Positions 2,097 through 19,215 of a DNA stretch of 35,601 nucleotides are shown piece after piece (position 1 is the first letter of the stretch; every line of letters starts with the position of its first letter). Origin of the DNA: a virus. The notes under the pieces were generated by a model. It saw nothing but the letters and a program-made list of their open reading frames with translations. It did not search any database and was not told the origin of the DNA. The translations under genes were made by a program, and so were the position numbers. The stretch is from IMG/VR virus record IMGVR_UViG_3300045988_153050, positions 1-35,601 of that record; one strand, written 5' to 3'.

Positions 2097-2303
2097 ATGA
2101 TTAACAAGGTTTGGTTAAAAGCTGCGCTTGTTCGGGCTGTGCGGACTATGGCACAGACTGCAATCGCCTGCATCGGCTCGTCTGTGGTGCTGTCCGCCGT
2201 AGACTGGCCCGTTGTACTGTCTGCAACGGTGTTGTCCGGTATCATTTCCCTGCTTACCAGTATCAACGGCCTACCAGAGGTGAAACAGTATGAGCAACAG
2301 TAA
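2097..2303 (+). CDS. Holin (68 aa, two TM segments)
   Basis: Small protein with two hydrophobic helices and a charged C-terminus. Directly precedes and overlaps the endolysin gene. Confidence 0.7.
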   Translation: MINKVWLKAALVRAVRTMAQTAIACIGSSVVLSAVDWPVVLSATVLSGIISLLTSINGLPEVKQYEQQ

Positions 2304-3075
2304 ACTCGTAACCTATACCAGAATCTCCCCGAACAGAACCAGCCCCCGGAACGGCGCTATCCGGGGCGTGGCTATCCACTGCACCGCAGGCGGACGGAAC
2401 AAGACGGCACGGGCCACGGCGGACTTGGGCCGGTTTACCACCTATGATCGGAAAAATGGTGCGTCCTGCAACTACGCTGTCGGCGGGGACGGGTCCATTG
2501 CGTTAGTCGTGCCGGAATCAGATCGGGCATGGTGTACGTCAAACCCGATTGACCATCAAATAGTATCTATTGAGGTGGCAAGCGACATTGACGCACCGAA
2601 CCGGGTAACCGACGCCGCCCTGTCCGCCCTGCTCGACCTGCTGACCGATATTTGCCGCCGGAACGGTATCCCGGCCCTGCTGTGGCTGGGTAGCAAAACC
2701 TACATGGGGCAATGGGACCGGCAGAACATGGTGGTACACCGCTGGACGCGGACAGACAAGGTGTGTCCGGGGGATTACCTGTACAACCTGCATCCGTGGA
2801 TTGCCGGGCAGGTCAACGCCCGCCTTGCGGGCAGAGAGGATGATGATATGGATATTAAGACGATCATCGAACAGCTGACGCCTGAGATGTGCTATGGTAT
2901 CATGGCTGAGGCTATGGCCTATGCGGCCACCTTGCCGGAACCGGAGTGGAGCCAGAGACAAGGACACTGGCAGGCGGCCACGTTGAAAGGTGTCGTTGAC
3001 GGGCAGGAGCCGGAGCGCCCTGTCAAACGGGATGAGCTGGCCGCTGTGCTGGGCCGGTTAGGCCTGCTCAAGTGA
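2290..3075 (+). CDS. Endolysin: N-acetylmuramoyl-L-alanine amidase (Amidase_2/PGRP type) with a C-terminal non-catalytic domain
   Basis: N-terminus ISPNRTSPRNGAIRGVAIHCTAG, plus WCTSNP and VCPG, is typical of amidase_2 endolysins. Located downstream of the holin. Confidence 0.8.
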   Translation: MSNSKLVTYTRISPNRTSPRNGAIRGVAIHCTAGGRNKTARATADLGRFTTYDRKNGASCNYAVGGDGSIALVVPESDRAWCTSNPIDHQIVSIEVASDIDAPNRVTDAALSALLDLLTDICRRNGIPALLWLGSKTYMGQWDRQNMVVHRWTRTDKVCPGDYLYNLHPWIAGQVNARLAGREDDDMDIKTIIEQLTPEMCYGIMAEAMAYAATLPEPEWSQRQGHWQAATLKGVVDGQEPERPVKRDELAAVLGRLGLLK

Positions 3076-3089
3076 GGCCTTGCTTTTTT
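3060..3089 (+). terminator. Weak hairpin plus T-tract at the end of the lysis operon
   Basis: AGGCCT (3060-3065) pairs with AGGCCT (3075-3080), followed by tgctttttt. Confidence 0.4.
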
Positions 3090-3108
3090 GTCCCCCGTGT
3101 GGTATCCT
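3080..3108 (+). promoter_or_regulatory. Putative sigma-70-type promoter of the repeat-like small RNA
   Basis: TTGCTT (3080-3085), a 17-nt spacer ending in TGg, then TATCCT (3103-3108). Confidence 0.45.
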
Positions 3109-3114
3109 TAGCCT

Positions 3115-3143
3115 GTCTCCCGGAAACGGGTGCGGATTGAAAC
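3115..3143 (+). repeat. Solitary CRISPR-repeat-like unit (type I-C-like)
   Basis: Sequence GTCTCCCGGAAACGGGTGCGGATTGAAAC. It has a 5' GTC, a CCCG/CGGG stem with a GAAA loop, and a 3' GGATTGAAAC as in the I-C repeat consensus recalled from memory. Single copy; no cas genes in the window. Confidence 0.5.
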
Positions 3144-3168
3144 ATTTTGAAGAACGCTGTTAAGCTAA

Positions 3169-3211
3169 CCCCCTTGGTGCTTTTTGTAGTACCGAGGGGG
3201 CGCTTCTTTTT
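3169..3211 (+). terminator. Rho-independent terminator
   Basis: CCCCCTTGGT (3169-3178) pairs with ACCGAGGGGG (3191-3200), a 10-bp stem with one G-U pair, followed by cgcttcttttt. Confidence 0.75.
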
Positions 3212-3470
3212 AACTGTTCAAAAACTCGACGAGATTAAAAATCTCCACGTTGTCCCAATCCTCATTGGGTGCATTTCCGCTTTCTTGGCTTTCCTTCTCT
3301 TTATTCAGGAGCCAGTACAGCTTTTCTTCCCCTGTTTCCGGACTTAGCAGGCCGTTAAGCCCCGGATATTTAGCCTGATACATGGGGTTCTCGGTTTCTT
3401 CTTCGCCAAATGGCACGGCGTTCAAATAGCTTCTTTCGCCGATTTCGGTCTCATATACCTTGATTTTCAT
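3210..3470 (-). CDS. Small, strongly acidic hypothetical protein (86 aa)
   Basis: AGGAGGG RBS. Many Glu/Asp and few basic residues. Second gene of the leftward cassette-driven operon. Confidence 0.65.
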   Translation of the reverse strand: MKIKVYETEIGERSYLNAVPFGEEETENPMYQAKYPGLNGLLSPETGEEKLYWLLNKEKESQESGNAPNEDWDNVEIFNLVEFLNS

Positions 3471-3484
3471 TGTATTCCCTCCTG

Positions 3485-3781
3485 TCAGGCAGCGACAAAC
3501 TCGCCGCTCAAGTTGTCCACGAAGCCCAGCTTGATCTCACGCTTGAGGTTCCATTTGTTGGTGTAGATGCGAGTAGCTACATAAGTACGATTTTTGCCGC
3601 CCTTAGCCCAGTTGTTGGCGGTTACACGGTAGTTCCAGCCGGAATCCTCACCGATAACCTCAGCCTCATTCACGGCCTTGGCCAGTGCCCAGGAAGCCCG
3701 AAGAGCGGTGCTCATGTCAACGTGGGCAGTGCGGCGGATGTTCCAAGCGTTTCTCATAATCTCGGACTTGTTGTACTTCAT
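3485..3781 (-). CDS. Hypothetical protein (98 aa; start refined to MKYNKSEIMRNAW)
   Basis: The ATG at 3781 is preceded by the conserved leader GGAAAGGAAGATCACC. The longer ORF-track start would run through the promoter. Confidence 0.65.
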   Translation of the reverse strand: MKYNKSEIMRNAWNIRRTAHVDMSTALRASWALAKAVNEAEVIGEDSGWNYRVTANNWAKGGKNRTYVATRIYTNKWNLKREIKLGFVDNLSGEFVAA

Positions 3782-3893
3782 GGTGATCTTCCTTTCCGCC
3801 CTCTGGGCTGTCCGTTCCTTTACTGTGATTACATTGTACACCTGTTTGTACAATAATGCAATAGGCAAAGCGTACAAATAAGAGTACGGTAAT
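3782..3893 (-). promoter_or_regulatory. Promoter, operator and leader cassette, copy a (leftward)
   Basis: On the minus strand: TTGCAT (3856-3861), 17 nt, TACAAT (3833-3838). The spacer carries TTGTACAA and there are upstream GTAC..TTGTAC half-sites. The leader has a GCCC/GGGC hairpin and an AAAGGAA RBS. Near-identical to copies b and c. Confidence 0.7.
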
Positions 3894-3929
3894 TTAGGCA
3901 CAACGCCAATAACTTGACAGTCCGGGTGC

Positions 3930-3958
3930 TTGACGATTCGAGCGCCTTATACTATAAT
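3930..3958 (+). promoter_or_regulatory. Near-consensus sigma-70 promoter of the orphan small RNA
   Basis: TTGACG (3930-3935), exactly 17 nt, TATAAT (3953-3958). Confidence 0.7.
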
Positions 3959-3964
3959 AAAAGA

Positions 3965-4040
3965 CGGAACGTACCACTCGAAAATTCCGCTTTCAAACAA
4001 AAGAAAACCCACCGGATTTAGCCGGTGGGTTTTTTCTTTT
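3965..4040 (+). ncRNA. Orphan small RNA of about 70-75 nt (two stem-loops)
   Basis: The predicted start lies a few nt after the -10. First hairpin is CGGAA (3965-3969) with TTCCG (3986-3990), then an A-rich linker and a terminator hairpin. There is no ATG or RBS. Confidence 0.55.
4004..4040 (+). terminator. Rho-independent terminator (A-tract upstream, so potentially bidirectional)
   Basis: CCCACCGG (4008-4015) pairs with CCGGTGGG (4022-4029), followed by tttttt ctttt. Confidence 0.8.
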
Positions 4041-4054
4041 CAGGTTGCACAAAG

Positions 4055-4166
4055 TGTTGTACTTGTTTTTGTACAGTCTGCCTATTGCGTTATTGTACAA
4101 ACTGGTATACAATAAAGGCACAGTAAAGGAAACAGACAGCCCGACAGGGTAGAAAGGAAGATAACC
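4055..4166 (+). promoter_or_regulatory. Promoter, operator and leader cassette, copy b (rightward)
   Basis: TTGCGT (4085-4090), 17 nt, TACAAT (4108-4113). TTGTACAA in the spacer and an upstream TTGTAC..TTGTACA. The leader is as in copies a and c. Confidence 0.7.
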
Positions 4167-4490
4167 ATGAAAAAGACTATTAACGGAAAAACATACAACA
4201 CAGAAACGGCTAGAGAGTTGGCCTGTTGGACGAACACCATCCACAGCAGGAATTTTGATCACTACACGGAGACACTGTACCAGCGTCGTGATGGTAGCTT
4301 GTTTATCCACGGTATCGGGGGGCCGGACAGCAAGTACGCAGTGCGGGTAGGAAACGGTTACTCCGGCGGCCAGGACCTCCGTCCAGTATCTAAGGCGGAA
4401 GCCATTGCATCCGTGCGGGAGTATGCAAACACCAGTGAAATCCCGTCAATCCTGGAAGAAATCGAGGGCACAGAGGCGGTGAACGAATGA
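4167..4490 (+). CDS. Hypothetical protein (107 aa), first gene of the acr-aca-like operon
   Basis: ATG directly after the conserved leader. No motif recognised. ATGA overlap with the downstream HTH gene. Confidence 0.65.
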   Translation: MKKTINGKTYNTETARELACWTNTIHSRNFDHYTETLYQRRDGSLFIHGIGGPDSKYAVRVGNGYSGGQDLRPVSKAEAIASVREYANTSEIPSILEEIEGTEAVNE

Positions 4491-4699
4491 TTACCTACAA
4501 CGGATTCAAGGCGAAGCTCGAAGAGCGAGGGGCCAAATACCGGCTGAGAAAAGCCGGTATCAGCCCGACCATCATAGCAAAAGCGTTGAACGGCACAGGC
4601 GGGTTTGAGACCGTGACCATCGACAAACTCTGTAAACTGCTGGGCTGTCAGCCCGGTGACCTAATGGAATATGTGGACGAAGAAGAGGCCGGGGAGTAA
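4487..4699 (+). CDS. Small HTH DNA-binding protein (XRE/Cro-like, 70 aa); candidate regulator of the TTGTACAA cassettes
   Basis: AGISPTIIAKALNGTGGFETVTIDKLCKLLGCQPGDL fits a helix-turn-helix followed by the LCxxLxCxxxDL tail typical of short XRE proteins. Confidence 0.7.
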   Translation: MITYNGFKAKLEERGAKYRLRKAGISPTIIAKALNGTGGFETVTIDKLCKLLGCQPGDLMEYVDEEEAGE

Positions 4700-14816: not shown

Positions 14817-15239
14817 TCAATTTCCCCCCTCATGCGTCCGGCGTACTGCATCGAGCGCGGTAAACACGGCGTCCAGGTCTGCGTCCGGGATAGCTGAGAC
14901 ACGCGGGGCGTATCGCTGGACGATCTCGCGGGCCTCTGCCTTGTGGCCCTGCGAGGCCAAAGTGATTACCAGGTCCTGCACCATGCCATGTGTGGCGTGT
15001 TGCGTCTCTGCGCCGTCCTGCGTCTCTGCGCTGTCCTGCGTGTCCTGTGCGGGCTGTTCCGTCTCAGGGCCACTGGTTACAGGTGTGGGCGCGTCGTGCG
15101 TCTCAGGGTCCTTCTTGCCGGGCTGGGCGAGTTCGGGCGGGTTGAACGGTGTCCCGACGGCTTGTAGGGCCGTGAGAATCGCGTCCAGCCGGGCGCGGTC
15201 TTCCGCGCACAGCTCAATAGTGAGATTCAGATTATTCAT
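14817..15239 (-). CDS. Hypothetical acidic protein with a tandem ETQD(S/G)A linker
   Basis: ATGA overlap with the methyltransferase stop. An 18-bp tandem repeat at 15001-15045 encodes the linker. Confidence 0.6.
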   Translation of the reverse strand: MNNLNLTIELCAEDRARLDAILTALQAVGTPFNPPELAQPGKKDPETHDAPTPVTSGPETEQPAQDTQDSAETQDGAETQHATHGMVQDLVITLASQGHKAEAREIVQRYAPRVSAIPDADLDAVFTALDAVRRTHEGGN

Positions 15240-16684
15240 GTGGTTCTACCTCCTAGATGGGGGCCTAGGCAGTTCTCGATTCCCTGCATCACATACAGGG
15301 CGGTAGGGAGAGCTATGCCGTTGCCCCACATTTTGTATTCTGCGCTGTCCGTGTGCAGCTTGCTGTACCAGGCTAACATTTGCGCCCTGGTGTAGGTTTT
15401 GACTGTCTTACCGTTTATATAGGCGTGTGTATTGCGAACGCCAATCCAAAACCGATATTCTTCACCGGTAAGGTTGCTTTTCGCGTCGATGTCGCCCCAC
15501 CAATCGGGGAATCCTTGCAACCGGGCGCACTCGGTCGGAGTGAGGCGTCGCACAATGTAGCCGATACACGCAATCGGTTGCTCATGGTTGCAATTCAGGG
15601 TTGGAGAGATATTTTCCAGAATTTCTGCATTGGCCTGACCATGAGCCATGCAAATTACATGGGGTATTTCCACCACGAACGGCTGATTATTTCCGCCTGT
15701 GCCAAGTTGAGCTGGCAACATTGGGCAGACGTCAAGCGGACCACGATATCTTGAATCCTGACTATGGTTCTCGAATAGGTATTGCCTTTTGCTTCCAACG
15801 GCATCCCATACGACAGGCTGGAATAGGTACTGATCGTTCAGCGTGGATAGCGTGGCTGTTTTGTTTTTCTGAATCAAGGCACCCTTTCCGCCACCAGCGC
15901 AACCAGAACGAATTTTCAGGGTATACGGAATCACCCTGTCTGTCTCTCCATCTGTTGCTCTAGCGCTACCCGCAACATCTCCGGCAGTGGTTTCCCACGG
16001 CGTCCTGCCCTCCGTAAAATACCCTCGCAGGCCCTCGCGCTCAAATAATATTTTTCCGGCGCGTCCACCTGCAAAATCTGCGACAAGGTAGATTCTACGG
16101 CGGCGTTGGGGGACTCCCCAGTATTGAGCGTCAAGAGTTCTGTAAGCAAGGCTCCATCCGTCTCCACGGTAACAGTCCGCCCTTGCCCATCCGCCTTGCG
16201 GAACGTCAGGCATAACGGCTTCCGGTTCGACGATTTTGATAAGCTCTTCGAGGACAGATCGAAAGTCTTCGCCTTTGTTACTGCTAAAGGCTCCCGGAAC
16301 ATTCTCCCAGAGAGCAAACCTTGGATATCTCCCATTAGTTGCACACCTCATTTCCCTGATAACGCGGACAGCCTCTATAAAAAGGCCGCTCCGTGTTGTC
16401 TCTTCGTCTCCGTTGGCCTCATGCTTCAGTCCAGCGCGTTTCCCGGCGATGGACAGGTCCTGACAGGGAGAACCAAACGTGATAACATCGACAGGCTCGA
16501 TCTCTGCACCGTTTACCCGGCTGATATCGCCCAGGTGTTTCATCGTCGGGAACCGGCTCCGTGTGACGGCTATCGGATACGGCTCGACCTCGCTAGCCCA
16601 CACGGGGGCTATCCCGCACATGCTGGCGGCTAACGGAAAACCGCCTGACCCATCGAACAGGCTGCCTAGTTTTATGCTCCCCAT
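15236..16684 (-). CDS. dcm: DNA (cytosine-5) methyltransferase
   Basis: Motif I LFDGSGG, IV GSPCQDLS, VI ENVPG, VIII QRRRRIY, X GNGIALP. Confidence 0.9.
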   Translation of the reverse strand: MGSIKLGSLFDGSGGFPLAASMCGIAPVWASEVEPYPIAVTRSRFPTMKHLGDISRVNGAEIEPVDVITFGSPCQDLSIAGKRAGLKHEANGDEETTRSGLFIEAVRVIREMRCATNGRYPRFALWENVPGAFSSNKGEDFRSVLEELIKIVEPEAVMPDVPQGGWARADCYRGDGWSLAYRTLDAQYWGVPQRRRRIYLVADFAGGRAGKILFEREGLRGYFTEGRTPWETTAGDVAGSARATDGETDRVIPYTLKIRSGCAGGGKGALIQKNKTATLSTLNDQYLFQPVVWDAVGSKRQYLFENHSQDSRYRGPLDVCPMLPAQLGTGGNNQPFVVEIPHVICMAHGQANAEILENISPTLNCNHEQPIACIGYIVRRLTPTECARLQGFPDWWGDIDAKSNLTGEEYRFWIGVRNTHAYINGKTVKTYTRAQMLAWYSKLHTDSAEYKMWGNGIALPTALYVMQGIENCLGPHLGGRTT

Positions 16685-18141: not shown

Positions 18142-19215
18142 ATGATAAAACGGAAAGACGGACGCTGGCAGGAACAAATCAAGCTCCCCGGTATGGAGAA
18201 GCCCAAATACTTTTACGGGCGGACACAGCGCGAGGTGCAACGGAAACTAGCCGCGTGGAGCGTAGAGCGAGAGCAGGAGCAGGCGCAGGCTGTACAGCTG
18301 TGTACCATCGTCGAGCAGTGGGCAGAACGGCACAGGGACGAGGTAGAGGCCACGTCATGGGGGAACTATGAACCCGCCGTGCGGGACGTGTTACAGTGGT
18401 TCCAGGGCCGGGAGATAGGGGACATATACCCGGATGAGATCACGGAGTTCTTACAGGCTATCGCGGCCCGTGGATACACCCGTTGGACAGTCCAGCGGCG
18501 GCGCGATGTACTAACTCAGACATGGGACTACGCAATCGGAAAAAGGCTAGTGCGGTACAACGTGGCCCGGCAATCCAAAATGCCCAAGGGCCTACCAGCT
18601 GGGACCAGAGAGCCGCCCACGCCTGAGCAGCTAGCGATGATCGGGGCCGGGTTCCGGCTACCGTTCGGGCTGTTCGCGGCGCTGGAAGGGTATACAGGCA
18701 TGCGCCGGGGAGAGATACTAGCCCTCCAATGGGACGATATTGACCGGGCCGCGGGAGTGATACACGTTCGGCGGGCCGTGCAGTTTATCGGTGAGGCCCC
18801 GCACACCAAGCCGCCCAAAACGGCGCAGGGAGTGCGAGACGTAGTTATTCCTGCCCCGCTGGACGCCCTGCTAGGAGACCGGAAACAGGGACTAGTATTC
18901 CCTGGCCCTACCGGGGAACTGTTACGCCTGAGCCAATTTAAGAGCGCGTGGCGGACGTGGTGCATATCGGTAGGCGTAGGTACACGGGGCCGGGGTACGG
19001 CAGTAACTACCCACCAGCTGAGGCACTTCTATGCAACCGTGCTATATGATGCAGGTGTCGGGGTAAAGGAAATGCAAACGCTGCTAGGGCACTCCGATAT
19101 ACGGACCACGATGAACATATACACCCACATCATGCTAAGCCGCAAGCAGGCTACCGCTGACAGGCTAAACAAGTATTTGTGTCAAAATCCGGTCAGCGGC
19201 GAAAAAGACGAATAA
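18142..19215 (+). CDS. int: Tyrosine recombinase (phage integrase)
   Basis: C-terminal catalytic signature: R (GMRRGE), HQLRH, LLGHSDIRTTMNIYTH. N-terminal SAM-like domain. Confidence 0.9.
   Translation: MIKRKDGRWQEQIKLPGMEKPKYFYGRTQREVQRKLAAWSVEREQEQAQAVQLCTIVEQWAERHRDEVEATSWGNYEPAVRDVLQWFQGREIGDIYPDEITEFLQAIAARGYTRWTVQRRRDVLTQTWDYAIGKRLVRYNVARQSKMPKGLPAGTREPPTPEQLAMIGAGFRLPFGLFAALEGYTGMRRGEILALQWDDIDRAAGVIHVRRAVQFIGEAPHTKPPKTAQGVRDVVIPAPLDALLGDRKQGLVFPGPTGELLRLSQFKSAWRTWCISVGVGTRGRGTAVTTHQLRHFYATVLYDAGVGVKEMQTLLGHSDIRTTMNIYTHIMLSRKQATADRLNKYLCQNPVSGEKDE

Follow-up and report, generated by a model that had tools for sequence, protein, structure and literature searches.

A small-RNA gene in a human gut phage that most likely mimics a single type I-C CRISPR repeat

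A phage of the human gut most likely carries a small-RNA gene that mimics one type I-C CRISPR repeat. We analysed the whole 35,601-nt stretch of IMG/VR virus record IMGVR_UViG_3300045988_153050 (the window), in which positions 3080-3211 appear to constitute a gene for a small non-coding RNA of ~95 nt whose first 29 nt imitate a type I-C repeat, and we place the probability that this solitary repeat unit acts as an RNA anti-CRISPR (Racr) at roughly 0.6. On the sequence evidence, such a Racr would most likely be a crRNA-like decoy directed against the host type I-C system. The anatomy of the locus, its likeness to type I-C repeats, its conservation and covariation, the mobility of the cassette that carries it and its setting in an anti-defence-like island were observed directly. 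This kind of counter-defence has already been described, since both RacrIC1, a validated type I-C Racr, and many type I-C solitary repeats of gut viruses have been published, and the element at 3080-3211 joins them; a full-text literature search returned no paper containing the repeat strings. What the present locus offers is a comparatively well-supported type I-C Racr candidate with defined boundaries (promoter, repeat, tail and terminator), carried by phages whose host is an uncultured member of the human-gut Oscillospiraceae. The features are as follows.

3080-3085, plus strand: −35 element TTGCTT; its TTG (3080-3082; columns T11, T12 and G13 of alignment A1) is invariant in all variants.
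3100-3108, plus strand: extended −10 element TGgTATCCT; TG and TAT..T are invariant (A1 columns T31, G32, T34, A35, T36 and T39), the middle two bases being CC, CT, AC, AG or AT.
3109-3114, plus strand: gap between the −10 element and the repeat, always 6 nt; TAGCCT in the window, otherwise TAGTTT, GAGCCT, ACAGAT or GTTTTC.
3115-3143, plus strand: solitary type I-C-like repeat unit GTCTCCCGGAAACGGGTGCGGATTGAAAC, 29 nt; a single copy, matched by covariance model R1, with stem covariation.
3144-3168, plus strand: tail ATTTTGAAGAACGCTGTTAAGCTAA, 25 nt, from alignment A1; the first five bases, ATTTT, are invariant and about one-third of the columns vary.
3169-3211, plus strand: intrinsic terminator, in which a 6-nt loop caps a 13-bp stem and the T-tract is CGCTTCTTTTT; the convergent 86-aa gene ends immediately before it.
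3077-3926, no strand assigned: accessory cassette of ~850 bp, comprising the repeat-RNA gene and a convergent two-gene operon, between the endolysin stop and a conserved island promoter.
3210-3470, minus strand: gene tail-to-tail with the repeat unit; its 86-aa product is acidic (pI 4.2, charge −11.5) and an anti-defence candidate.
3485-3781, minus strand: called gene that opens the convergent operon and encodes a basic protein of 98 aa (pI 10).
3770-3912, minus strand: promoter and 5′ UTR of the 98aa-86aa operon, from alignment A4 and blastn.
4036-4699, plus strand: acr-aca-like operon with its promoter region, a 107-aa ORF (4167-4490) and a 70-aa HTH_26 regulator (4487-4699).

The repeat unit begins with a GU overhang (3115-3116), continues with a 6-bp stem (3117-3122 paired with 3127-3132) whose loop is GAAA (3123-3126), and finishes with the handle CGGAUUGAAAC of 11 nt (3133-3143), giving a total layout of 2 + 16 + 11 nt. 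The original prediction had described these 29 nt correctly, including the CCCG and CGGG that flank the loop and the 3′ end GGATTGAAAC, and it was equally right that the repeat is solitary and that no cas gene accompanies it. No further copy was found in the window at ≤3 mismatches (0 of 100 shuffles gave any), the best local alignments in the 100-nt flanks reached 12-14 of 29 positions, the type I-C model made no second match in the window, and no cas gene was present among the ORFs scanned. The unit is intergenic, between the endolysin stop at 3075 and the stop of the 86-aa gene at 3210, with neither a repeat within 100 bp nor a cas gene, as in a solitary repeat unit (SRU); being a single copy with no second repeat and no cas, it lacks the array membership of a CRISPR repeat. 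It resembles a repeat in sequence and is not part of a CRISPR locus.

Nine variants of the unit were compared. GTCTC and GGATTGAAAC were invariant, and the outer stem and handle were fixed, while the loop varied freely (GAAA, GATA, TTTC, GAGA or CAAA) and the 6-bp stem covaried, with AU, GC and GU at one inner pair and a change from CG to UA at another. This pattern would fit what Cas5c reportedly reads. The window copy was the most degenerate, with a U.U mismatch at 3118/3131, beside the stem base, and a C at the first handle base, so that its handle starts C-G-G, compared with U-G-G in 8 of the 9 variants. The U.U form was present in all nine loci fetched through P0045 (a variant indexed in 91 blocks); the L251 variant has a perfect stem and a U handle. 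Both the mismatch and the C count against the Racr reading, although CGGATTGAAAC handles are common among real arrays. A U22G change at the first handle base nearly abolishes cleavage by Bacillus halodurans Cas5c, and Streptococcus mutans Cas5c is not blocked (PMC8524198).

In type I-C repeats the stem-loop stands between 2 unpaired nt at the 5′ end and an 11-nt 3′ overhang (PMC8524198). This overhang becomes the crRNA 5′ handle and is expected to end in AUUGAAAC/U. The same arrangement was found in the unit, whose 11-nt overhang ends GGAUUGAAAC. In size the unit departs from the type, with 29 nt, a 6-bp stem and a 4-nt loop versus the usual 31-33 nt, 7-8-bp stem and 4-5-nt loop. Every real type I-C array that we fetched had repeats of 31-33 nt, and shortened-hairpin mimics of 27-29 nt were seen only as solitary units in viral contigs. 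That the unit is shorter than all of these real repeats counts against the Racr reading.

Covariance model R1 was trained on 25 repeats of real type I-C arrays with no solitary unit included, the training arrays having been fetched by patterns from the unit's own ends, a caveat on its score. R1 matched 3115-3143 with a score of 30.4 bits and, over 150 kb, E 1.4e-5, the sole significant match in the window, with the next-best match at 9.7 bits (E 6); on the same scale, left-out real repeats scored 40-47 bits and degenerate terminal repeats of real arrays 23-28 bits. Rfam gave no match at the locus at gathering thresholds, and the sub-threshold CRISPR-DR9 match, in a search of 301 nt, had E 0.12 and 18.6 bits, where the gathering score is 45. 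By itself the Rfam score would be unconvincing for repeat identity; the R1 match appears to lie beyond chance. Together with the shared layout (PMC8524198), the R1 match bore out the prediction of a type I-C-like unit; the closest real family reads GTCTCC...GGGAGTGGATTGAAAC/T and not GTCGC...GCGTGG, the consensus given with that prediction. Arrays of the GTCTCC...GGGAGTGGATTGAAAC family adjoin cas3-cas5d-csd1-cas7-cas4-cas1-cas2, and one type I-C locus of the GTCTCC...GGGAGTGGATTGAAAC/T type is very abundant in the human gut (Cas7 90% cluster, n=2525).

The elements on either side of the unit suggest a self-contained gene, as had been proposed. The promoter-like sequence lies exactly where it was predicted, with TTGCTT, a 17-nt spacer ending TGG, TATCCT (3103-3108) and a 6-nt gap, and, judged by the spacing from the −10 element, transcription is predicted to begin at G3115 or an adjacent base. 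A simple sigma-70 scan did not call a promoter at 3080-3108, because TTGCTT fits only 3 of 6 positions. Comparative support came from the nine variants, in which TTG, the TG extension and TAnnnT were invariant and the neighbouring bases varied, and in which the key promoter positions, their spacing and the terminator stem were all conserved. In two variants, L246 and L253, the upstream sequence is wholly different, yet a promoter still sets the predicted start at repeat base 1; in L149-type phages a terminator lies upstream, and the bases of TTGCTT double as its T-tract. Three unrelated viral contigs (L024, L027 and L258) likewise have a solitary I-C-like repeat behind a promoter. At the other end, the terminator scan confirmed the predicted hairpin and T-tract as one of only two terminator-like sites called within 2500-4500; its fold energy was −41 kcal/mol (z −4.05), and its stem was present in all variants, with G-U to G-C changes.

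The cassette appears to be a mobile insert in an acr-aca-like island. By blastn, homology to four close relatives (L002, L003, L004 and L015) ends at 3076 and resumes at 3927/3928, and another relative has a different insert at this position. The unit and the 86-aa gene were linked tail-to-tail in 20 of 20 other contigs fetched through the 86-aa gene, spanning at least two phage lineages. The 86-aa protein belongs to a narrow family (83-93% identical) with no match in Pfam, PHROG or NCBIfam, and a Foldseek search with its AlphaFold model (pLDDT 84) gave nothing better than E 1 and no PDB fold match; this acidic, strictly linked protein, for which no fold relative is known, is a candidate partner of the RNA. 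The 98-aa protein weakly matched phrog_28198 (unknown function) and, in its N-terminal part, AcrIIA3_fam (E 0.0046, 17 bits versus a cut-off of 70), the sole NCBIfam match among the neighbouring proteins. These proteins did not resemble known Acrs, a point against the Racr reading, and a PDB sequence search with them was empty. Region 3770-3912 duplicates, in inverted orientation and at 86% identity, the promoter region of the acr-aca-like operon together with its TTGTAC/GTACAA repeats. The architecture of the island is acr-aca-like, as predicted, in its duplicated promoter, in the HTH_26 regulator (Pfam, E 6.6e-12) and in the variable small gene upstream of it; in L251 a different small gene (65 aa) takes that place and precedes an HTH_26 gene of similar sequence (72 aa). 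The INPHARED phage collection contained no DNA relative of 2290-4200. This context of a mobile insert, a linked small acidic protein gene and a copied acr-aca-like promoter would fit the Racr reading.

A prophage relative, L158, placed the host near Evtepia (Oscillospiraceae). The chromosomal flanks of the abundant gut I-C locus, whose repeat is of the GTCTCC family, have 59.5-61.6% GC versus 61.7% for the host flank, and no identity link between that locus and the phage host was found. None of its 77 unique spacers, and none of ~4,700 spacers from the fetched arrays, matched the phage family, and the host CRISPR system was not found among these arrays; both results count against the Racr reading. 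A metagenome scan for GTCTCC...GGATTGAAAC arrays gave 85 loci; a genome scan for arrays ending GCGGATTGAAAC pointed mostly to environmental bacteria among the matches listed. Cas1 neighbours of L239 pointed to Lachnospiraceae-like organisms (one named Eisenbergiella) rather than to the inferred host.

The tail bears most directly on whether the RNA might be a single-repeat guide, in which, once Cas5c has processed it, handle and tail form a working short crRNA, its 3′ repeat replaced by the terminator hairpin, that steers host Cascade to a fixed target, a reading that we consider unlikely. The target would be either a competing phage, by mini-array logic, or a host or phage promoter repressed without cleavage, by CreA-like logic, and this too seems improbable. 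A processed product would retain the whole 11-nt 5′ handle, the segment bound by Cas5c within Cascade (PMC8524198), about two-thirds of the tail columns, beginning with ATTTT, are fixed while the repeat loop changes freely, and some repeat-like RNAs do mediate Cas-dependent repression (PMC10651486). Against this, the tail is conserved about as much as the whole cassette (83-93% identical), with modest variation across lineages and no spacer-like turnover; it spans 25-26 nt before the hairpin, compared with 33-36 nt for spacers in the real arrays fetched, and one variant carries a 1-nt insertion. Nor did a target emerge. Neither the tail nor the 35 nt after the handle (3144-3178), proposed earlier as a protospacer query, matched anything beyond chance in 50,697 phage records or 72,556 plasmids; the best match in the window and relatives, 16 of 25, equalled the mean of shuffled queries; and in IMG/VR identity ended at the searched 19-mer, with no match next to a TTC PAM, the exact 25-mer of the window copy being absent. 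The original prediction had offered an RNA anti-CRISPR and a one-repeat mini-array as options, and the lack of a second repeat, of spacer-like turnover in the tail and of a target beyond chance in the phage, plasmid and IMG/VR sequences searched favours the former over the latter. It is quite unlikely that the RNA is a working one-repeat guide turning host Cascade, shortened and perhaps without Cas3 recruitment, into a phage-programmed repressor at a conserved host or rival site.

Two further readings concern the surrounding transcripts and the DNA itself. The unit could be a cis-acting processing or stability site in the late (endolysin) 3′ UTR, or the source of an anti-repeat RNA that pairs with host pre-crRNA repeats, which we regard as very unlikely; the odds are similarly poor for the anti-repeat form arising through read-through of the convergent 98aa-86aa operon. 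Read-through into the unit is likely in the window, where it is not separated from the endolysin stop by a strong terminator; on the minus strand TTAGCTT, instead of a T-tract, comes after the hairpin, so the convergent operon may read into the unit in antisense. These observations are set against selection on the plus-strand promoter positions, an orientation that in every variant agrees with the sense strand of I-C repeats, and the strong terminator that precedes the unit in L149-type phages as well as the divergent gene upstream of it in L246 and L253, which indicate that the unit is independent of the late transcript. Highly improbable is a non-functional relic or DNA site, either a decaying captured host repeat or a repeat-like site at which the phage would integrate into CRISPR arrays. 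Phages are known to enter such arrays via repeat-like sites (cited in PMC10651486), and the window copy is the most degenerate one. Against this reading stand the presence of the unit in all 20 further loci, its compensatory stem changes and conserved promoter and terminator, the sharing of the U.U form by all nine P0045-fetched loci, and the position of the integrase gene (18142-19215), 15 kb away. In prophage relative L158 the integrase gene is directly followed by a serine recombinase gene and then by host genes, so the unit is not at the prophage end. An attP mimic was ruled out, as both the integrase and the prophage junction lie 15 kb from the unit.

The Racr reading can be set out as a sequence of proposed steps. 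A sigma-A-type promoter (TTGCTT, 17 nt, TGgTATCCT) would drive transcription from repeat base 1, and read-through from the endolysin gene may contribute repeat RNA. Host Cas5c would recognise the short hairpin and the adjoining 11-nt handle, and the product would comprise the handle, the 25-nt tail and the terminator hairpin, resembling a crRNA with the terminator in place of the 3′ repeat hairpin. This product could nucleate Cas7, Cas8c and Cas11 into a shortened Cascade-like complex with no target, and an excess of the decoy RNA would compete with host crRNAs for Cas proteins, lessening interference against the phage or prophage. We infer the transcription of the 3080-3211 RNA, its binding and cleavage by Cas5c, the assembly of the decoy and the existence of a cognate host type I-C system. 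A non-targeting crRNA alone reduced type I-F interference by competition (PMC10651486). Partial conservation of the tail is unaccounted for by a pure decoy model.

Compared with real repeats of the GTCTCC family, the unit has the same 2-nt and 11-nt overhangs, but its loop is unrelated and the inner one or two stem pairs are missing. Stems of 7-8 bp, a length of 31-33 nt and a place in arrays beside cas genes characterise the real repeats, whereas the unit stands alone, and the window copy has two substitutions beside the cut site. The gut I-C repeat GTCTCCCCTCGCATGAGGGGAGTGGATTGAAAT (L301-L323) shares the unit's 5′ GTCTCCC and, in 6 of the 9 variants, an identical 3′ GGGAGTGGATTGAAA in the same register, while the window and L149/L245 units read GGGTG and share at most 12 nt at the 3′ end. 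The natural variants reveal tolerated positions and offer a ready table from which to design minimal type I-C inhibitor RNAs and to probe the specificity of Cas5c.

Viral CRISPR mini-arrays, as in the Saccharolobus portogloboviruses SPV1 and SPV2 (PMC11656645), are likewise phage-borne CRISPR fragments with no cas genes that rely on host Cas proteins. They contain two or more repeats identical to those of the host and spacers matching related viruses; the unit has one repeat, and no target was found for its tail. The catalogued viral solitary repeat units (Faure et al. 2019; SRUFinder, PMC10651486) are, like it, intergenic, lone and cas-free and often located just downstream of a predicted promoter (PMC10651486). 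The SRUFinder table holds at least ~680 repeat-like strings ending GGATTGAAA, and many of the rows listed are gut-virus type I-C units (PMC10651486); among the rows listed, none belongs to the subfamily GTCTCC..., 6-bp stem, ...GGGAG/GGGTG-YGGATTGAAAC. SRUFinder requires 90% coverage and 41.1 bits against a catalogued repeat, cut-offs that the unit would probably miss, because the longest exact stretch it shares with any real repeat fetched is ~15 nt. Identity-based searches such as SRUFinder probably miss shortened-hairpin mimics, and the number of RNA anti-CRISPRs may therefore be underestimated.

The nearest validated counterpart is RacrIC1 of a Bifidobacterium pseudocatenulatum prophage (Camara-Wilpert et al. 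2023, PMC10651486), likewise a solitary I-C-like repeat in a prophage or phage, intergenic, beside a small anti-defence-type gene and imperfectly matched to real repeats. RacrIC1 works despite matching the tested repeat at 29 of 34 positions with one change inside the handle, and Racr candidates cluster with acr genes, RacrIC1 itself lying 11 nt downstream of an AcrIC5 homologue (PMC10651486). It is 34 nt long with a full-length stem and is co-transcribed with acrIC5; in contrast, the 29-nt unit, with its 6-bp stem and 4-nt loop, has its own predicted promoter, which places the repeat at the RNA 5′ end, is convergent with its neighbour gene and has a dedicated tail and terminator, and its neighbour is, as far as testable, not an AcrIC5 homologue. 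RacrIF1 of type I-F (PMC10651486) is a small-RNA repeat mimic with its own promoter that competes for Cas proteins, as is predicted for the unit's RNA. In that system Cas6f remains bound to the hairpin, and inhibition comes from the 70-76 nt lying upstream of the cut, which carry a Cas7f filament without Cas5f or Cas8f (PMC10651486); in type I-C, Cas5c remains on the downstream handle (PMC8524198). Because the own-promoter RNA has nothing upstream of the repeat, its mechanism must differ in detail from that of RacrIF1, and the active product should be the downstream, crRNA-like piece. The locus thereby poses a mechanistic question for type I-C, in which the active product would lie downstream of the cut, unlike in RacrIF1.

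The endolysin gene (Amidase_2, by domain match and gene call) ends at position 3075, and a minus-strand gene call of 86 aa has its end at 3210. Re-reading of the intervening sequence recovered the promoter, repeat unit, tail and hairpin of the original prediction at exactly the same positions.

Elements of the repeat-RNA gene (window positions, strand, element, basis)
3080-3085, plus, −35 element TTGCTT, sequence reading
between 3085 and 3103, plus, 17-nt spacer ending in TGG, sequence reading
3103-3108, plus, −10 element TATCCT, sequence reading
between the −10 element and the unit, plus, six bases TAGCCT, sequence reading
3115-3143, plus, 29-nt unit GTCTCCCGGAAACGGGTGCGGATTGAAAC, sequence reading
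3144-3168, plus, 25-nt tail, sequence reading
3169-3211, plus, 13-bp hairpin and T-tract, terminator scan

A scan of 2500-4500 called two terminator-like sites; the hairpin was one of these, and it was the main contributor to the fold energy of −41 kcal/mol (z −4.05) calculated for RNA 3110-3215. As predicted, the unit was solitary: no second copy with up to three mismatches was present in the window, the best repeat-like match in the 100-nt flanks of the unit reached only 12–14 of 29 positions, and neither cas genes nor tRNA genes were found in the window.

The CRISPR-DR9 family of Rfam aligned exactly to 3115-3143, with 18.6 bits compared to a gathering score of 45. This result was not decisive, and we therefore gathered real arrays for comparison. 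Scanning genomes for arrays whose repeats end in GCGGATTGAAAC gave at least 120 loci, with repeats of 31–33 nt (GTCGC-stem-loop-GCGCGGATTGAAAC) or 37 nt. A further 85 loci came from a metagenome scan for GTCTCC...GGATTGAAAC repeats (for example, GTCTCCCTTCTTGCGAAGGGAGTGGATTGAAAC and GTCTCCCTCTGCGTGAGGGAGTGGATTGAAAC), and two of these 85 adjoined csd1(cas8c)-cas7-cas4-cas1-cas2 and cas3-cas5d-csd1-cas7 genes, identifying them as type I-C. R1, a covariance model trained on 25 repeats of such arrays with solitary units left out, matched the full 29 nt of the unit, including the stem-loop register, at 30.4 bits (E 1.4e-5 over 150 kb), a score to which the ends of the unit contributed circularly because the training arrays were retrieved by patterns taken from these ends, while the position and register of the stem-loop were free of circularity. 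No other R1 match in the window exceeded 9.7 bits; real repeats outside the training set scored 40–47 bits and degenerate terminal repeats 23–28 bits.

In published type I-C repeats, a 7-bp stem with a 5-nt loop stands between a 2-nt 5′ overhang and an 11-nt 3′ overhang (PMC8524198). The unit (2 nt, 6 bp, 4 nt and 11 nt) has identical overhangs but a shortened hairpin, and this layout, together with the R1 match, upheld its reading as a type I-C-like repeat. The repeat length was 31–33 nt in every real I-C array fetched, and the shortened versions of 27–29 nt were confined to solitary units of viral contigs (the unit's own family, L027, L275, L296, and L299 with L300). Recognition by B. halodurans Cas5c involves the stem base and the three bases U-G-G that follow the cut, but neither the loop nor the 5′ overhang (PMC8524198). 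The window copy carries two changes beside the cut site, a U.U at the second stem pair and a C at the first handle base. C-initial handles are normal in many real arrays, and the U.U form was present in all nine loci fetched through protein P0045, a variant indexed in 91 blocks.

Solitary type I-C-like units were also seen in unrelated viral contigs: L024 (7959-7991 and 9268-9299, 1.3 kb apart), L027 (2074-2101), L258 (595-625), L275 (8744-8770), L296 (1417-1444) and L299 (417-444). Several had a near-consensus promoter 5–13 nt upstream and several had shortened hairpins of 27–28 nt units; L258 shared the plan of the window unit, with promoter, unit, ~20-nt tail and terminator.

The unit is absent from four closely related phages (L002, L003, L004 and L015; endolysin 85–86% identical), whose homology to the window ends at 3076 and restarts at 3927. 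This marks 3077-3926 as an inserted cassette; besides the unit, it contains two minus-strand genes, one of 98 aa and one of 86 aa. The 86-aa protein and its relatives, which are few and form a narrow family (83–93% identity), served to fetch further contigs. The unit lay tail-to-tail with the 86-aa gene in 20 of 20 further loci, including a second phage lineage of 40–47 kb with a different lysis module, and was also found on three IMG/VR contigs, L017 (fetched again as L289), L245 and L295. Seven distinct 29-mers were obtained.

Variants of the 29-nt unit (locus, sequence)
window, GTCTCCCGGAAACGGGTGCGGATTGAAAC
L149 and L245, GTCTCCCGGAAACGGGTGTGGATTGAAAC
L248, GTCTCCCGGATATGGGAGTGGATTGAAAC
L254, GTCTCCCAGAGATGGGAGTGGATTGAAAC
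L251, GTCTCCCGTTTCCGGGAGTGGATTGAAAC
L253, GTCTCCTACAAATAGGAGTGGATTGAAAC
L246 and L017, GTCTCTCAGAGATGGGAGTGGATTGAAAC

Alignment of nine 150-nt units (A1) showed invariant TTG (−35) and TG and TAT..T (extended −10) positions in the promoter, and invariant GTCTC and GGATTGAAAC in the repeat, the latter together with the next five bases, ATTTT. The gap before the repeat was constant at 6 nt and variable in sequence, and the loop was unconstrained. The six stem pairs were paired in 94% of cells, with compensatory changes at two of them (AU/GC/GU at one, CG to UA at the other), a one-sided change at a third, and a break to U.U in the group of the window, L149 and L245. Sliding the stem partners lowered pairing to 42–63%, and only 1 of 500 shuffles reached the observed covariation score. 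In L246 and L253 the upstream DNA was unrelated (a divergent gene), and the promoter was nonetheless present, in L253 as TTGCAT, 17 nt and TATAGT, six bases before GTCTC. This pattern is the trace expected of selection on an RNA that would be both expressed and structured, and it supports the self-contained small-RNA gene originally proposed. We put the probability that 3080-3211 is a selected, repeat-derived small-RNA gene at about 0.85.

The window represents a temperate Bacillota phage of ~35.6 kb recovered from human-gut metagenomes, with identifiable terminase, portal, prohead protease and capsid genes, an integrase (18142-19215), DNA polymerase A, a VapE-like primase and a C5 methylase. 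The C-5 cytosine DNA methylase of the early region (15236-16684, minus strand; Pfam E 1.3e-38) probably has an anti-restriction function. The only Rfam match at gathering level in the window was a type-P5 twister ribozyme (RF02684; 19764-19819, plus strand; 63.9 bits versus 37.6, E 3.2e-11), ~550 nt downstream of the integrase gene and near the expected attachment site. In the second lineage (L149, L150, L153 and L154), a reverse transcriptase gene (RVT_1; ~5800 to the locus end, minus strand) lies near the tail and lysis genes, one possibility being that it is part of a diversity-generating retroelement.

L158, a prophage relative on a 79-kb contig, carries an integrase in one 90% cluster with that of the window and adjoins pho and pst genes. 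Its flanking PhoU belongs to a cluster labelled Clostridiales bacterium and the closest named relatives of its flanking histidine kinase are from Evtepia (71–72% identity), pointing therefore to an uncultured Oscillospiraceae-like gut bacterium as host. A type I-C locus very abundant in human gut (L301-L323; for example, L301 890-10870) has the unusual order cas4-cas1-cas2-cas3-cas5d-csd1-cas7-array, adjoins pyrimidine-synthesis genes, and has the repeat GTCTCCCCTCGCATGAGGGGAGTGGATTGAAAT and a Cas7 in a 90% cluster of 2525 members. The GC content of its flanks (59.5–61.6%) and of the L158 host flank (~62%) is compatible with its presence in the host of the phage and proves nothing. None of ~4,700 spacers tested matched the phage family.

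The promoter and 5′ UTR of the 98aa-86aa operon (3770-3912, minus strand) are an inverted copy, 86% identical, of 4036-4180 (plus strand), the region preceding an operon at 4167-4699. The products of that operon are a 107-aa protein and an HTH_26 regulator of 70 aa, and its promoter region contains TTGTAC/GTACAA repeats. The duplication suggests that the same regulator may control both operons. In L251, the gene upstream of the HTH gene is replaced by a 65-aa one, a swap typical of acr-aca loci, and these features are in keeping with the acr-aca-like operon placed in this island by the original prediction. None of the neighbour proteins matched a known Acr, the sole Acr trace being the N-terminus of the 98-aa protein against AcrIIA3_fam (17 bits, far under the cut-off of 70). 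The 86-aa protein (3210-3470, minus strand) is very acidic (pI 4.2) and was modelled confidently (pLDDT 84) as three strands followed by helices; no PDB relative was found by sequence or fold (best Foldseek E 1.0). It is predicted to be an orphan fold of very narrow distribution, strictly linked to the repeat RNA.

Within 3930-4040 (plus strand), a short unit of ~75 nt with a strong terminator at its end (4004-4033) lies behind a near-consensus promoter (TTGACG, 17 nt, TATAAT); the unit is located directly after the endolysin in L002-L004 and L015 and ~700 nt downstream in the phage contig L001. GGAAC..TTCC is changed to GGAC..GTCC, and a TTCGAG/CTCGAA inverted repeat spans the −10 element. 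It looks like a second small-RNA gene; no Rfam family matched it at threshold.

Solitary viral repeat units were described by Faure et al. (2019), and their action as RNA anti-CRISPRs (Racrs) by Camara-Wilpert et al. (PMC10651486), who found them frequently just 3′ of a promoter and clustered with acr genes. Nine Racr candidates were validated, among them RacrIC1, which shares 29 of 34 positions with the tested repeat, and a non-targeting crRNA alone reduced interference through competition (PMC10651486). In the part of their solitary-unit table considered here, ~680 repeat-like strings have GGATTGAAA at their end; many are type I-C units of gut viruses. The unit's subfamily was not found in this part of the table. 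The original prediction had left two roles side by side, RNA anti-CRISPR and mini-array. A mini-array or guide RNA using the tail as spacer has no support, since a second repeat is absent, the tail lacks spacer-like turnover, and a protospacer query with the tail found no target in phages, plasmids, IMG/VR or the phage family itself; a guide aimed at a site in the host chromosome is a less likely alternative. By analogy with the validated Racrs, we favour anti-CRISPR action, with the repeat RNA rather likely serving as a decoy against type I-C CRISPR. The observation itself was confirmed, and its interpretation is supported by anatomy and evolution; the function we infer.

At the tail of Cascade, Cas5c stays attached to the 5′ handle (PMC8524198). 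If the RNA begins at the repeat and Cas5c keeps hold of the downstream handle, the active product would comprise the handle, the tail and the terminator hairpin and so resemble a crRNA. In RacrIF1, the active piece lies upstream of the cut, with its hairpin on Cas6f, whereas the proposed active piece of the window RNA is the downstream one, with its handle on Cas5c. This kind of element is already known, and the present one is somewhat divergent in its shortened hairpin, the repeat at the RNA 5′ end and the fixed tail.
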